From the sequence record MH359124: DNA of 64,000 bases. One strand, written 5' to 3'. A model generated the notes under the pieces. That model did not search any database. It was given only the letters and a program-made list of their open reading frames with translations, and was not told the origin of the DNA. How positions within the stretch are numbered: the stretch's first letter is position 1; the number at the start of each line of letters is the position of its first letter. The DNA comes from Escherichia phage SF. A program made the position numbers and the translations under genes. Positions 18,350 to 23,242 of this stretch are shown here, piece by piece.

Positions 18350-18637
18350 ATGATTCATCCATTTGACGTATCAGAATCCAAAATTGCTAATCTTCGTGGT
18401 CATCATAAGTGTAAATCAGTTTATTGCGCTAAATTGGTAAAACATCCTGGCGATGCACACTACGGCTGGTTAGAATGCGACGAAGTTGTTATTGAAATTC
18501 CGCCTGTAGATGCAGAATATCTTGAAGAAGGTGATCGCATTTATTTTGGCGAACTACACATCAGAGGTATCTATGGTAAAGACGAACTTGGGGCTGTTGA
18601 GACTGAAGAATCTTCCGACATTTATCCTGTCGAATGA
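18350..18637 (+). CDS. hypothetical protein (rIIB-ndd interval, denB region)
   Basis: 95 aa, His/Cys-containing; ATG right after terminator. Confidence 0.45.
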   Translation: MIHPFDVSESKIANLRGHHKCKSVYCAKLVKHPGDAHYGWLECDEVVIEIPPVDAEYLEEGDRIYFGELHIRGIYGKDELGAVETEESSDIYPVE

Positions 18638-18653
18638 GTTTTTGACTAGTGAA

Positions 18654-19130
18654 ATGAAGGTGAAGATTGCTGACACTGCTCGGTATTCCCTGAGCCAAAA
18701 TCCTGGCCAAAACAAAGAAGATGTAGTTCGACGTTGTAAGGTTGCGGTCTTTGCAGAGTATGTAGTAGCAAATTGGCTAGACGGATATGTTAATAAAGGT
18801 ATTGAAGACGTAGAAGACCCATACACGTATGCATGGGACGTGTTAGCCCATCCCAAGTATTGCGGAATTCGTGTAGAAGTCAAGACACACCAGATAGATT
18901 CTAAATGGATTTCGGTTACCACAGGATACAGTGGTGATTATCCGGGTGGTAATGGAATCAATATAGGGCCCTTCTTGAACCATCGAGTCGCAGACTGCAT
19001 TATTATATTAGATGTCAAAGAAACCTCACCTGACGTCTTCTCTTATTCTATAAAGTTCGTGGGAGACCATGAAGACCTAAAGAAAATCGTCCGCAAGAGC
19101 AACTACAACGGGTGGTATCTTCATCTTTAA
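18654..19130 (+). CDS. hypothetical protein (possible denB-region product)
   Basis: Track ORF 18510 trimmed to the first ATG after the upstream stop; 158 aa; weak SD. Confidence 0.4.
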   Translation: MKVKIADTARYSLSQNPGQNKEDVVRRCKVAVFAEYVVANWLDGYVNKGIEDVEDPYTYAWDVLAHPKYCGIRVEVKTHQIDSKWISVTTGYSGDYPGGNGINIGPFLNHRVADCIIILDVKETSPDVFSYSIKFVGDHEDLKKIVRKSNYNGWYLHL

Positions 19131-19142
19131 TTTCATAAAAGT

Positions 19143-19180
19143 GTTTACAACTAAGTAGGACTATGATACAGTAGTCCTAT
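19143..19180 (+). promoter_or_regulatory. early promoter with stem-loop (TAGGACTA/TAGTCCTA)
   Basis: GTTTAC at 19143; 8-bp inverted repeat around TGATACAG. Confidence 0.5.
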
Positions 19181-19198
19181 CTAAAAGAGGATAGCATC

Positions 19199-19462
19199 AT
19201 GAAATTTAAATTTTTCTACGCAAAACATAAAGTAACAGGCGAATTTGTTTCAATGTACAACACCGCAGATGATGAAGGGATGATTTATACCCATTTAGGC
19301 CTATCTCATTGGGACTCAGACGTGCCTTATATGTCATCTGAAGCCGAAATAACTCGTCTGGTTAATGGACATATGAACGACCATTTTAGTGTTATTCTTT
19401 CTAAAGACCTTAAAGAGGTTATCAACAAAGGATATATGGAACTCGCGGAAGTTGAGATATGA
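19199..19462 (+). CDS. hypothetical protein
   Basis: 87 aa; AAGAGGA SD. Confidence 0.5.
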   Translation: MKFKFFYAKHKVTGEFVSMYNTADDEGMIYTHLGLSHWDSDVPYMSSEAEITRLVNGHMNDHFSVILSKDLKEVINKGYMELAEVEI

Positions 19463-19651
19463 GCTCTAAAATGTGGATAGGAATATGGTTTCTTAGTATC
19501 CCTATGATTTGTATAATATTTTCAATTGCATTGAGGTACTTATGAAAAATGCACTTATTGTACTAAGAACAATTTGCGATACAGGTTTTTACATCGCATG
19601 TTCGTTCACTGGAACATGGTTGGCTTTAACATATTTTAATGTAATTTAATT

Positions 19652-19690
19652 GTTTACAACACAGTAGGATTATGGTATAGTAGTCCTATC
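19652..19690 (+). promoter_or_regulatory. early promoter with imperfect stem-loop
   Basis: GTTTAC at 19652; TAGGATTATGGTATAGTAGTCCTATCAAAACA cassette. Confidence 0.45.
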
Positions 19691-19709
19691 AAAACACGAG
19701 GAAAACAAA

Positions 19710-19910
19710 ATGGCTAAGCTTTTTAAAGATGTTGAAATTGGTGAAAAATTTGTCCTGAATAATGGTCAGCAGCTTATTCGTGTAGCTTCTATAGCCGGAC
19801 AAACTCATAACTGCATAGCCCCAACGTGTTGGACCCGATTCTTTATTGAGGATGACACCGAATGTTTAACTGTTGAAGAGCTTTTTGAACGTTCTGATAT
19901 AACCGAATAA
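19710..19910 (+). CDS. hypothetical protein
   Basis: 66 aa, Cys-containing. Confidence 0.5.
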   Translation: MAKLFKDVEIGEKFVLNNGQQLIRVASIAGQTHNCIAPTCWTRFFIEDDTECLTVEELFERSDITE

Positions 19911-19912
19911 AA

Positions 19913-19948
19913 TTGTACAAACTCTTGAGAGCAGAGTATAATGCTCTC
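19913..19948 (+). promoter_or_regulatory. early promoter (TTGTAC -35, TATAAT -10) within GAGAGCA/TGCTCTC inverted repeat
   Basis: Homologous to the cassette at 48659. Confidence 0.5.
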
Positions 19949-19986
19949 ATGGATTACAAAAACATTAATCAATTGAGGAAATTAGC

Positions 19987-20433
19987 ATGTCCAAATATTT
20001 AACTCGTAAAGACCTTCTGGCAGTTGGCGGTGAAGTTGTTGCAGTAGTTCGTAATGGCGAATACGGTTCTGAAGTTTCTAAAGAGTTTCGTTCTCGTGAA
20101 GGTTTTTACTTCTTTGTTAAAGGTTCATCTGATTGGCGTCAAGTAGCAGCACGATTCTTTGTAGGACGTCAACGTTCTAAACAAGGGTTGGATGCAATTC
20201 TTTCTCACATTCGTCAAGGCCGTTCGCAACTAGCCCGTACTATGGGCACTAACAATATTGAATATGATGTAATCTTTGTTGCAGCTAAGAACATGAAACC
20301 ACTGACCACTGGTTATGGTAAAGGACAATTGGCTCTGGCATTCACTCGCAATCATACATCAGAATATCAAACACTCACTGAAATGAACCGTCTTCTGGCA
20401 GATAATTTCAAATTCATTCTGCAGAGTTATTAA
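19987..20433 (+). CDS. ndd: nucleoid disruption protein Ndd
   Basis: 148 aa; [59 protein letters not shown] match recalled T4 Ndd. Confidence 0.85.
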
Positions 20434-20486
20434 TTTATATAGGCCTATTAAGTTAGGCCTTTAATTTATTTTTGAGGTAATTAAAA

Positions 20487-20636
20487 TGGTAACATGGATT
20501 ATTGCATTGTTGTGTTGGTCGTTTTTATTCATTAACACTTTAGTTACAGGCGAAACAACAGTATTTCAACAGGCTGTATCACAAGGTACCTTAGCGGTCT
20601 TAGCTCTTTTTAACGTATTAAAAGGCGAGCAATGAT
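20487..20636 (+). CDS. small hydrophobic peptide (49 aa)
   Basis: Below the track cutoff; hand-translated MVTWIIALLCWSFLFI...; position upstream of gene 52 as for T4 stp/ac. Confidence 0.3.
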
Positions 20637-20771
20637 TAAGAAAATCTTAGCAGGAGCCTTCGGGCTCTTGTTGTTGCTTACGGTCCTGTACTACGGTGTG
20701 ATGTTTGGGCTAATCCAAGTAGTGCTTTTCATTTCAGATGTTATAATGGCTATTCGTTCATTAATATGGTG
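20634..20771 (+). CDS. small hydrophobic peptide (45 aa), possibly Ac-like
   Basis: Hand-translated MIKKILAGAFGLLLLLTVLYYGVMFG...; immediately upstream of gene 52. Confidence 0.3.
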
Positions 20772-20776
20772 AAAAT

Positions 20777-22102
20777 ATGCAATTGAATTCTCGTAATCTA
20801 AAAAGTATTATTGATAACGAAGCCTTAGCATATGCGATGTACACCGTTGAAAACCGTGCAATCCCAAACATGATTGATGGATTTAAGCCGGTTCAACGTT
20901 TTGTGGTTCATCGTGCGTTAGATTTGGCTCGTGGTAATAAAGAAAAATTTCATAAACTTGCGTCAATTGCAGGCGGTGTTGCAGATTTAGGTTATCACCA
21001 TGGTGAATCTTCTGCACAAGATGCAGGTGCATTGATGGCTAACACATGGAACAACAACTATCCACTGTTAGATGGCCAAGGCAACTTTGGTTCTCGAACA
21101 GTCCAAAAAGCTGCAGCATCTCGTTATATTTTTGCTCGTGTAAGTAAAAATTTCTATAACGTATATAAAGATACTGAATATGCTCCAGCTCATGAAGATA
21201 AAGAACACATTCCACCAAAATTCTATCTTCCTATTATTCCAACAGTTCTTTTGAATGGCGTCTCTGGTATTGCAACCGGTTACGCAACAAATATTCTGCC
21301 TCATAGTTTTAAATCAGTCAAAAAGGCTGTATTACAAGCTCTTCAAGGTAAAAATGTCACTAAGCCAAAAGTTGAATTCCCGGAATTCCGTGGTGAAGTA
21401 CATGAAGTTGATGGGCGTTATGAGATTCACGGAACATATAAGTTCACATCCCGAACTCAAATGCAGATAACTGAAATCCCATATAAATTCGACCGTGAAA
21501 CGTATGTGAGTAAGGTTCTTGACCCATTGGAAGACAAAGGTCTAATCTCATGGGAAGATGATTGTGGTGAACACGGCTTTGGGTTTAAGGTGAAGTTCCG
21601 TAAAGAGTACTCGCTTCCTGATGATGAAGAGCTACGTCATGAAAAAATCATGAAAGATTTTAGTCTCATCGAACGTCGTTCGCAAAACATCACAGTGATT
21701 AATGAAAAGGGTAAATTAGCGGTCTATGATAACGTAGTGGACTTAATCAAAGATTTTGTTGAAGTCCGTAAGACTTATGTTCAGAAACGTATTGACAACA
21801 AAATCCTTGAATCTGAAAAAGCATTTAAACTGGCTTTTGCTAAGGCACACTTCATCAAAAAAGTTATTACAGGTGAAATTGTGATTCAGGGCAAGACTCG
21901 TAAAGCTTTGACTGAAGAGCTAGCACAAATCGAAATGTATAAAGAACATGTCGATAAACTGGTAGGCCTTAACATCTTCCATATCACTTCCGACGAAGCA
22001 CGTAAACTAGCAGAAGAAGCTAAGGCTAAGAAAGAAGAAAATGAGTATTGGAAGTCTACTGATGTTGTGACAGAGTACACTAAAGACTTGGAGGCACTTT
22101 GA
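20777..22102 (+). CDS. 52: DNA topoisomerase II medium subunit gp52
   Basis: 441 aa; GyrA/ParC-like N-terminus (AYAMYTVENRAIPNMIDGFKPVQR), same size as T4 gp52. Confidence 0.92.
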   Translation: MQLNSRNLKSIIDNEALAYAMYTVENRAIPNMIDGFKPVQRFVVHRALDLARGNKEKFHKLASIAGGVADLGYHHGESSAQDAGALMANTWNNNYPLLDGQGNFGSRTVQKAAASRYIFARVSKNFYNVYKDTEYAPAHEDKEHIPPKFYLPIIPTVLLNGVSGIATGYATNILPHSFKSVKKAVLQALQGKNVTKPKVEFPEFRGEVHEVDGRYEIHGTYKFTSRTQMQITEIPYKFDRETYVSKVLDPLEDKGLISWEDDCGEHGFGFKVKFRKEYSLPDDEELRHEKIMKDFSLIERRSQNITVINEKGKLAVYDNVVDLIKDFVEVRKTYVQKRIDNKILESEKAFKLAFAKAHFIKKVITGEIVIQGKTRKALTEELAQIEMYKEHVDKLVGLNIFHITSDEARKLAEEAKAKKEENEYWKSTDVVTEYTKDLEAL

Positions 22103-22178
22103 GTGCCCTAGCCTTAGGATTTCTCGGTGCAATAGCTGCACTAGTGATTTGGCTGTATTGGTTGGACAAACATGATTA

Positions 22179-22199
22179 GGGAGCTTCGGCTCCCTTTTG
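22179..22199 (+). terminator. rho-independent terminator after gene 52
   Basis: gggagc-ttcg-gctccc followed by T4. Confidence 0.55.
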
Positions 22200-22221
22200 T
22201 GCATTTTTTTCTCACAAAACA

Positions 22222-22250
22222 GTTTACTTTTGCTTCAAACATGATATTAT
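22222..22250 (+). promoter_or_regulatory. early promoter, copy A of a duplicated cassette of about 75 bp
   Basis: GTTTAC, 17 bp, TATTAT; cassette AGTTTACTTTTGCTTCAAAC.TGATATTATAGACCTATCAAAACAAA...TTGGAGAAATAAAATGTCTAAA. Confidence 0.5.
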
Positions 22251-22289
22251 AGACCTATCAAAACAAAACAACCAAATTGGAGAAATAAA

Positions 22290-22505
22290 ATGTCTAAAAT
22301 GAAATTAACCCAAAACACAACTACTCGTTTCGGTAAAGTTAAACCTGGTATGAATGCTCCCCGTAAAGCACTTGTTGAAGAATTAAATTTCTTAGAAGTT
22401 GAAATCAATTCTTTAGTGGTTCGCGGTTCAAATGGACATCATTTAGAAAAGCTTCGTTCTAAAAAGGCAAAACTTATTGGCCTTATTAAAGAAATGAGTT
22501 TGTAA
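22290..22505 (+). CDS. hypothetical protein
   Basis: 71 aa, basic; begins MSK like the following motA. Confidence 0.5.
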   Translation: MSKMKLTQNTTTRFGKVKPGMNAPRKALVEELNFLEVEINSLVVRGSNGHHLEKLRSKKAKLIGLIKEMSL

Positions 22506-22543
22506 ATTTTACCAGGGCTTTTGGAAAAAGAGCCCAAAATAAA

Positions 22544-22572
22544 GTTTACTTTTGCTTCAAACGTGATATTAT
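22544..22572 (+). promoter_or_regulatory. early promoter, copy B of the duplicated cassette
   Basis: About 90 percent identical to the cassette at 22222; precedes motA. Confidence 0.5.
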
Positions 22573-22609
22573 AGACCTATCAAAACAAATACTAATTTGG
22601 AGAAATAAA

Positions 22610-23242
22610 ATGTCTAAAGTTACTTACATCATCAAAGCTTCTGAAAACGCTCTGAATGAAAAAACTGCTGCAATAATGGTTTATGTCATTAAGAACAACT
22701 TCACCACGGCTGCCAATGTCCGTGAAGCTCTGGAAGCGGAATACAATGCATCGGTTGTTAACTCTAACATTGGTGTATTGATTAAGAAAGGTTTAGTCGA
22801 AAAATCCGGTGATGGACTTGTAGCAACAGGCGAAGCAATGGATATTATCCAAAAAGCTGCAGACCTCTTTGCCCAAGAAAATGCTCCAGAACTTCTTCAG
22901 AAACGTAACACTAGAAAAGCACGTGGAGTTACTCCTGAAATGCACGAATTAGCGAACTTTGTTTTTGAAAATATTAAAGATAAAGTTGAAGTTAAAGAAA
23001 TTGGTGAAAACCGTAGTAACTTGGAAGTTCGATTTGCAAAACGAGTTCTAGGTATTCGTCAGATCGAAATTCGTCGAAATGGTTCTCTTAGAATCTTTGC
23101 ATACAACATGTCAGAAACTGAATCAAAGCTGTTTACTTCTCTTGAAAATGATGTTAAGATTAAGATCGGTGGTAAATATACATACATTGACTTCCCTAAT
23201 GTGTCCAAAGAAATCATTACCCTTGTAACTAACGTACTGTGA
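22610..23242 (+). CDS. motA: middle-mode transcription activator MotA
   Basis: 210 aa; MSKVTYIIKAS, NSNIGVLIKKGLVEKSGDGL, QENAPELL match recalled T4 MotA. Confidence 0.85.
   Translation: MSKVTYIIKASENALNEKTAAIMVYVIKNNFTTAANVREALEAEYNASVVNSNIGVLIKKGLVEKSGDGLVATGEAMDIIQKAADLFAQENAPELLQKRNTRKARGVTPEMHELANFVFENIKDKVEVKEIGENRSNLEVRFAKRVLGIRQIEIRRNGSLRIFAYNMSETESKLFTSLENDVKIKIGGKYTYIDFPNVSKEIITLVTNVL

Follow-up and report, generated by a model that had tools for sequence, protein, structure and literature searches.

Five short, overlapping reading frames around ndd, ac and gene 52 of a Mosigvirus phage are probable early genes for inner-membrane miniproteins

A stretch of 64,000 nucleotides (nt) from Escherichia phage SF (sequence record MH359124), here called the window, carries five very short open reading frames (ORFs) around the genes ndd, ac and 52. 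All five exist on the + strand, as a sequence-only reading had stated; its positions were exact for 19459-19545, 19542-19649 and 22099-22179, whereas the frame given as 20487-20636 runs from 20486 to 20635, and the one given as 20634-20771 with 45 amino acids (aa) runs from 20632 to 20772 and has 46. The region 19100-22300 shares 97.5-98.4% nucleotide identity with numerous Mosigvirus phages of Escherichia (RB69, HX01, PHB12, APCEc01 and others), and the early genes on the + strand follow the T4/RB69-like order rIIB, denB, ndd.1, ndd, ac, 52.1, 52, motA. Judged by its sequence, the phage is a Mosigvirus, that is, a T-even phage of the RB69/HX01 type. We consider it probable, at about 80%, that the five ORFs are genuine early genes of this RB69-like phage for inner-membrane miniproteins, arranged in chains of translationally coupled cistrons. 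Comparative alignments show that three products are orthologs of T4 Ndd.6, Ac and gp52.1 and evolve under purifying selection, and that the reading frames are conserved. The five ORFs and the gene that anchors the second chain are as follows.

19459-19545, + strand: Ndd.6 ortholog, a hydrophobic single-helix peptide of 28 aa with an ATG start (phrog_8851, E 9.6e-10)
19542-19649, + strand: aromatic-rich peptide of 35 aa with an ATG start and a GAGG Shine-Dalgarno motif, at the position of T4 ndd.5 (phrog_18561, E 5.9e-27)
20486-20635, + strand: Ac acridine-sensitivity protein (annotated as 'acridine resistance'), 49 aa (phrog_2501, E 5.3e-22)
20632-20772, + strand: gp52.1, 46 aa, Pfam DUF7396; ATGA overlap with the ac stop, own stop 4 nt before the start of gene 52
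20777-22102, + strand: gene 52, DNA topoisomerase II medium subunit, anchor of the coupled chain of ac, 52.1, 52 and the 26-aa ORF
22099-22179, + strand: hydrophobic single-helix peptide of 26 aa with a TTG start behind GGAGG and a 5-nt spacer; TTGA overlap with the gene 52 stop

Two sets of sequences were compared with the window. Across genera, the surroundings of gene 52 at 38 loci in viral contigs (gp52 identity 47-100%) and four annotated phage records gave 42 comparison loci; within the genus, 14-15 Mosigvirus genomes served for frame conservation, insertions and deletions (indels) and codon positions, and 12 annotated Mosigvirus records were inspected for annotation counts. Hydrophobicity is the Kyte-Doolittle mean of the best 17-residue window, pairwise similarity to T4 proteins was assessed by local alignment with a z-score against 500 shuffles, and the structure models are AlphaFold2 predictions from single sequences, which are weak evidence. 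PHROG matches among the mini-ORFs comprise phrog_3595 in addition to the three families listed above.

The coupling of the mini-ORFs, claimed in the sequence-only reading, is borne out by start/stop overlaps of the type ATGA at 19459-19462, 19542-19545 and 20632-20635 and TTGA at 22099-22102. That reading had named conservation of the frames in related phages as one check, and they are intact in 14-15 Mosigvirus genomes with the single exception of a 1-nt deletion in the 35-aa ORF. At least six indels that are not multiples of three lie in the short intergenic spacers of these genomes, and this deletion, in phage PECP20, is the only one of that kind inside a mini-ORF. Over all five mini-ORFs, the variable sites in 14 Mosigvirus genomes are distributed over the three codon positions as 23/7/30 (p 0.001).

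The 28-aa peptide aligns with T4 Ndd.6 over all 28 residues (46% identity, z 9.4, none of 500 shuffles equally good) and carries the Ndd.6 motif M-S-(S)-x-x-W...W...I-P, of which W6, W10 and I14-P15 are kept across genera. Both ORFs share their length, the motif M-S-S...W...W..IP, the ATGA overlap and the site between denB and ndd; they differ in the upstream partner gene, which in T4 is cut to a remnant of eight codons and in the window has 87 aa. Homologues of 28-29 aa were present at 23 of the 42 comparison loci, each with a start that overlaps the stop of the preceding ORF as ATGA or TTGA. Ndd.6 begins with ATG in some genera and with TTG in others, so that a TTG start such as that of the 26-aa ORF is unremarkable in this gene cluster. 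The 28-aa ORF is intact in 14 of 14 Mosigvirus genomes. For Ndd.6, the proportion of nonsynonymous differences (pN) was below that of synonymous ones (pS) in all six comparisons, in one of them barely (0.41 vs 0.42). With a hydrophobicity of 2.49, the peptide shows no obvious cleavable signal peptide on inspection by eye (no predictor was run). T4 Ndd.6 is labelled 'predicted outer membrane protein', an old prediction not obviously supported by a hydrophobic helix of 28 residues.

Two observations concern Ndd.6 and its partner in other phages. T4 (locus L004, reverse complement, 1885-1911) is without the 87-aa gene, the last eight codons of which, MKIAEIEL*, remain behind GGAG and overlap ndd.6 by ATGA; this mini-ORF carries no annotation in T4, and the full gene is found in close T4 relatives (compare L007, 941-1204). 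The remnant fits a need for coupling. In the T4-like contig L007 (1201-1452), the Ndd.6 homologue is without a stop and runs to 83 aa, which may reflect a real fusion or a frameshift, or else a faulty assembly.

By its profile match and gene order, the frame at 20486-20635 is Ac. The sequence-only reading had pointed to stp and ac as tiny T4 effectors of this region and had not recognised that this frame is Ac itself. Compared with T4 Ac (51 aa), the alignment reached z 9.0 with none of 500 shuffles equally good, and tblastn to T4 ac gave E 3e-4. The gene lies after ndd with its stop overlapping the start of 52.1, in the same order as in T4 and RB69, and the name ('Ac acridine resistance protein') is used in RB69, HX01 and other records. 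Size, helix-break-helix shape, position and a critical glycine are common to both proteins, but the window Ac is only about 34% identical to that of T4, over 35 residues. The exchange G38R in T4 Ac confers acriflavine resistance (preprint 10.1101/2025.06.30.662393), and T4 Gly38 aligns with Gly34 of the window Ac. The protein (hydrophobicity 2.13) is taken to have a transmembrane helix at its N-terminus and a second helix behind it, and its model has helices at residues 2-21 and 24-45 with a predicted local distance difference test score (pLDDT) of 79, in agreement with the ESMFold model of T4 Ac in the same preprint. In the two comparisons that aligned, pN was below pS. The window Ac ends in GEQ*, one codon beyond most Mosigvirus (GE*).

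It is known for T4 Ac that infected or Ac-expressing cells accumulate acridines and become acridine-sensitive. Expression of Ac in E. coli raises acriflavine sensitivity and Δac phages are resistant, and the authors propose that Ac interferes with AcrAB-TolC efflux (preprint 10.1101/2025.06.30.662393); a 2026 PNAS paper cites this interference as an assumption. Our searches of PDB sequences with Ac and gp52.1 as queries returned nothing meaningful and no match to AcrZ.

In contrast to ac, no stp was found. T4 has this gene between ndd and ac, but no homologue of T4 Stp, a basic 26-aa peptide that activates PrrC, was detected anywhere in the window (best E 0.36). The spacer between ndd and ac holds only a hairpin, and there is no basic or hydrophilic peptide among the five.

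Other T-even genera (L010, L012, L029, L031, L036) have different small two-helix membrane proteins between ndd and gene 52: a family of 51-54 aa with a GVW(A/V)P motif, which sits in the ac slot, and a family of 52-60 aa with an SL..P..(N)D loop. Small membrane proteins directly before gene 52 are therefore an arrangement that reaches beyond detectable homology.

Strong constraint was found for gp52.1. It matches PF24129 with E 6.5e-23 and 81.1 bits (cut-off 27), residues 1-46 falling on profile positions 1-46, and is 74% identical to T4 gp52.1 (z 21.3), from which it does not differ materially: both have 46 aa, an ATGA start and a site directly upstream of gene 52. Homologues were found at 34 of the 42 comparison loci and every one starts with ATGA. 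The ratio of nonsynonymous to synonymous substitution rates (dN/dS) against five other genera was 0.08-0.23, with synonymous sites near saturation; it is similar for gp52 (0.05-0.17), and Ndd is looser (about 0.3). By these ratios, gp52.1 is under strong purifying selection. The residues invariant in an alignment of nine divergent family members (G22, L32-F33, V37 and the C-terminal W) are all present. Given its 41-residue hydrophobic run (hydrophobicity 2.36) with flanking positive charges, a two-helix hairpin was considered; the single-sequence model shows one long helix (residues 2-45, pLDDT 96). Being constrained as tightly as the adjoining topoisomerase subunit, gp52.1 is the most attractive of the mini-ORF products to study. 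Its residue 40 (window 20749-20751) is A, V, T, D or I among Mosigvirus, in a protein that is otherwise nearly invariant.

The 35-aa ORF, which has 36 aa in most relatives, was found by tblastn in 151 phage records, every one of Mosigvirus type. Its product showed no similarity in local alignments to T4 Ndd.2, 2a, 3, 4 or 5 (for Ndd.5 z 1.0, 79 of 500 shuffles as good), and T4 Ndd.5 as a tblastn query found no match in the window. T4 Ndd.5 (32 aa) is likewise small and hydrophobic and starts with a 4-nt overlap behind ndd.6; in contrast to it, the Mosigvirus peptide is less hydrophobic, confined to its genus and unrelated in sequence. Judged by these searches, the 35-aa ORF is an ORFan limited to Mosigvirus that takes the place of T4 ndd.5. 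Its indels among Mosigvirus are one in-frame CTT codon and the deletion in PECP20, which falls in a T-run. Neither stp nor ndd.2-ndd.5 nor motA.1 had a homologue anywhere in the window by tblastn.

The 26-aa ORF behind gene 52 is intact in all 15 Mosigvirus sequences compared; in phage LF82-3 its start is ATG in place of TTG. It is free of indels, several of which lie in the 110-nt spacer after it, and it shows no changes at second codon positions; three of four replacements are mild (L/I, G/S, K/N). The peptide (hydrophobicity 2.49) has no PHROG or Pfam match, and it is not similar to T4 MotA.1 (z -0.5, 355 of 500 shuffles as good), for which tblastn against the window found nothing. Like the T4 motA.1, the ORF has a 4-nt overlap with the stop of gene 52, lies upstream of motA and encodes a hydrophobic product rich in small-xxx-small patterns; T4 MotA.1 ('predicted periplasmic protein'), however, has 49 aa and an ATG start, so that the 26-aa ORF, with its TTG, is half as long. 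It is a positional and functional analogue of motA.1 and not a demonstrated homologue. A non-coding RNA at this place was considered and rejected, given that the Rfam scan of 19000-22700 matched no family and the body of the 26-aa ORF folds in an ordinary way, with no unusual RNA structure (z +0.35).

Across T-even genera, ORFs that overlap the gene 52 stop with their start occur in at least five sequence-unrelated forms, all strongly hydrophobic: 49 aa (T4-type and a related group), 34 aa, 45-46 aa, 23 aa and, in Mosigvirus, 26 aa. Some lineages are without a coupled ORF after gene 52. If stops occur at 0.065 per codon, these frames would all be open by chance with a joint probability of about 7e-6, a figure that counts the open frames alone. 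The slot would be conserved by position and not by sequence, its occupant being a coupled, Gly/Ala-rich transmembrane micropeptide which, together with gp52.1, could be a partner of topoisomerase or replication (membrane tethering, co-translational delivery) or an AcrZ-like modulator of host efflux pumps. We regard this proposal as a long shot; if true, it would set the post-52 peptides apart from miscellaneous accessory genes.

The minimum-free-energy fold, the only one in which it was seen, contains a possible 6-bp hairpin at window 22093-22107 (GGCACU-UUG-AGUGCC), with the TTG start in the loop and the 3' half of GGAGG in the 5' arm. Strict coupling would follow, since ribosomes ending gene 52 would need to melt this hairpin.

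A rival explanation takes the 26-aa and the 35-aa ORF, perhaps together with that of 28 aa, to be cis-acting coupling or leader ORFs, in which translation itself matters (for gp52 expression, mRNA stability or terminator read-through) and the peptide is functionless. Every start overlaps an upstream stop, the post-52 peptide is swapped for unrelated sequences of 23-49 aa between genera and absent in some, and T4 retains a meaningless ORF of eight codons merely for the overlap with ndd.6; moreover, the 26-aa ORF ends right where the terminator stem begins, its TTG sits in a small hairpin loop, and pN/pS of the 26-aa and 35-aa ORFs is weakly below 1. A mere spacer, however, need not be hydrophobic, and all five post-52 versions score 1.9-3.4 at a background rate of 7% for values of 2.0 or more. 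The absence of second-position changes in the 26-aa ORF, with its mostly mild replacements, and the retention of W6, W10 and I14-P15 in Ndd.6 across genera also speak against this explanation, which we hold to be improbable.

The promoters, hairpins and repeats around the mini-ORFs, with the gene upstream of them, are the following.

19126-19185, + strand: early promoter with stem-loop; T4-early-type TTTACA-17-TACAGT at 19144-19172 (promoter scan), stem-loop TAGGACTA...TAGTCCTA embedded
19144, 19653 and 19914, + strand: T4-early-type promoters upstream of the 87-aa gene, ndd.1 and ndd, respectively
19199-19462, + strand: gene for a soluble 87-aa protein (RB69ORF270c family, phrog_2390); stop overlapping the start of the 28-aa ORF
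19635-19694, + strand: downstream copy of the promoter/stem-loop repeat, serving as the ndd.1 early promoter (direct-repeat and promoter scans)
20441-20460, + strand: terminator-like hairpin between ndd and ac (scan; annotated terminator at the equivalent site in phage G2469)
22180-22195, + strand: likely terminator GGGAGC-TTCG-GCTCCC with a T-rich tract, directly after the 26-aa stop (annotated terminator there in phage NRG-P0074)

In the reading that we prefer, that of genuine genes for inner-membrane miniproteins, the five ORFs would form two modules. In the first, the early promoter at 19144 would drive the 87-aa protein, Ndd.6 and then the Mosigvirus-specific peptide of 35/36 aa. The second would comprise Ac, gp52.1 (DUF7396), gp52 and the 26-aa TTG peptide, and the hairpin at 22180-22195 likely ends this transcription unit. 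The products are predicted to insert as helices into the host inner membrane, where Ac may impair acridine efflux through AcrAB-TolC, as proposed in preprint 10.1101/2025.06.30.662393, and the other four may be accessory proteins that modify the envelope in a host-dependent way. The slots of ndd.5 and motA.1 appear to have been refilled repeatedly with unrelated hydrophobic peptides across genera. The first module is flanked by the direct repeat 19126-19185/19635-19694 (60 nt, copies 82% identical), which encloses the 87-aa, 28-aa and 35-aa ORFs and resembles the PeSL elements proposed as cassette shufflers in T4-like phages (PMC4122927). The 87-aa gene has a pN/pS of 0.06 among Mosigvirus.

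Several points weigh against this reading. Six-frame translation of the window yields 675 ORFs of 20-60 aa, of which 47 are as hydrophobic as the mini-ORFs and 43 are preceded by a Shine-Dalgarno match of 4 nt or more. Both properties coincide in three ORFs, exactly ac, 52.1 and the 26-aa ORF, where 3.0 are expected by chance; composition was therefore dropped as evidence for genes, since the count equals the expectation under independence, and the case for genes rests on conservation and position. The codon-position pattern of the 35-aa and 26-aa ORFs alone (9/3/11, p 0.1) is not significant, and these two ORFs have no homologues outside Mosigvirus. The 35-aa peptide is weakly hydrophobic (1.51), with internal R and D and several polar residues, and by its composition is not a clear transmembrane peptide; its ORF is frameshifted in one genome, that of PECP20. 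Membrane insertion, topology and host targets are predictions, the structure models were made without alignments, and the efflux-pump mechanism of Ac is a hypothesis of the preprint. Finally, the T4 homologue proteins were undetected in a time-resolved proteome (Class_P = NA, PMC9697503 Table S2), which is expected for tiny hydrophobic peptides but is still a gap. The description of all products as peptides with a single transmembrane segment fits the 28-aa and 26-aa peptides, but not the helix-break-helix of Ac or the moderately hydrophobic 35-aa product.

Some of these points, namely the composition count, the silence of proteomics on the T4 homologues and the frameshifted 35-aa ORF, would also suit a view of some or all mini-ORFs as untranslated chance frames in AT-rich, T-rich spacer DNA, as would the disagreement between annotation pipelines, which also place clearly spurious ORFs in the neighbourhood. 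Given the orthology of and purifying selection on Ndd.6, Ac and gp52.1, the genetic phenotype of Ac in T4 (preprint 10.1101/2025.06.30.662393), the distribution of indels, the conserved coupling and a post-52 ORF kept by position across genera, we consider this view very improbable.

The suggestion that the peptides are dedicated membrane-acting effectors, directed against the host or its defences or serving superinfection exclusion, is possible in our opinion but doubtful. In line with this idea, the T4 genes motA.1, 52.1, ac, stp and ndd.2-ndd.6 fall into the early transcript class (PMC9697503 Table S2), and the region is plastic and lies between promoter/stem-loop repeats of a kind tied to cassette shuffling and host adaptation (PMC4122927). 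The occupants of the slots turn over fast between genera, and residue 40 of gp52.1 is hypervariable within Mosigvirus. The T4 deletion saΔ9, which removes 52.1, ac, stp, ndd, ndd.1-6 and denB, reduces the burst to about half of normal, and the block is dispensable on laboratory strains, as is typical of host-specific accessory genes (PMC6071114). However, the reported phenotype of saΔ9 is a lost phage-induced stimulation of phospholipid synthesis and not lost exclusion (PMC6071114). In addition, gp52.1 is conserved like a core replication protein and unlike typical arms-race genes, and the sole known phenotype, the acridine sensitivity caused by Ac, is a liability. A full-text literature search on ndd.5, ndd.6, motA.1 and DUF7396 returned almost solely unrelated papers, and a paper on a toxicity screen of a T4-like phage used ndd as a control only and left the small ORFs unmentioned.

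The sequence-only reading had also supposed that automated annotation misses these ORFs. This is true of the 28-aa and the 26-aa ORF, each annotated in only one of the 12 Mosigvirus records, but not of Ac (12/12), gp52.1 (11/12) or the 35/36-aa ORF (9/12), and the RefSeq entry of HX01 carries annotation for all five. A collection of about 15 billion proteins contains the exact 26-aa sequence a single time (YP_010247053, from RefSeq HX01), and the common 28-aa variant is in two or three curated phage records. Routine pipelines skip the 28-aa Ndd.6 ortholog and the 26-aa TTG ORF in most Mosigvirus records, and some of them place implausible ORFs over promoters, namely at 19913-20002 and shortly after the 26-aa stop; a curated model for the mini-ORF slots would improve annotation. 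The mini-ORFs are already known and not an overlooked class: three are orthologs of genes named in T4, and two encode peptides particular to the lineage in slots known from T4. As a discovery they carry little weight; the T4 annotation has for years included groups of tiny predicted membrane proteins near ndd, ac and gene 52. The residual interest lies in the post-52 peptide, conserved in position and replaceable in sequence, and in the strong conservation of gp52.1.

Further observations concern neighbouring genes. A 71-aa gene at 22290-22505 (phrog_6200) is a cassette between direct repeats of about 85 nt, 22213-22298 and 22535-22618, each with an early/middle promoter, the 5' leader and ATGTCTAAA. 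It is present in the window and six of the compared Mosigvirus genomes and cleanly absent in eight others, including RB69, a pattern that fits gain or loss of the PeSL type by promoter repeats. Between rIIB and denB (window 18350-18640), HX01 has a 25-aa TTG ORF (18363-18440) inside the 95-aa ORF 18350-18637 of most other records. The start of denB is annotated at three positions (477, 558 and 621 nt); the 558-nt form matches the N-terminus of T4 DenB and overlaps the 95-aa ORF by 65 nt.

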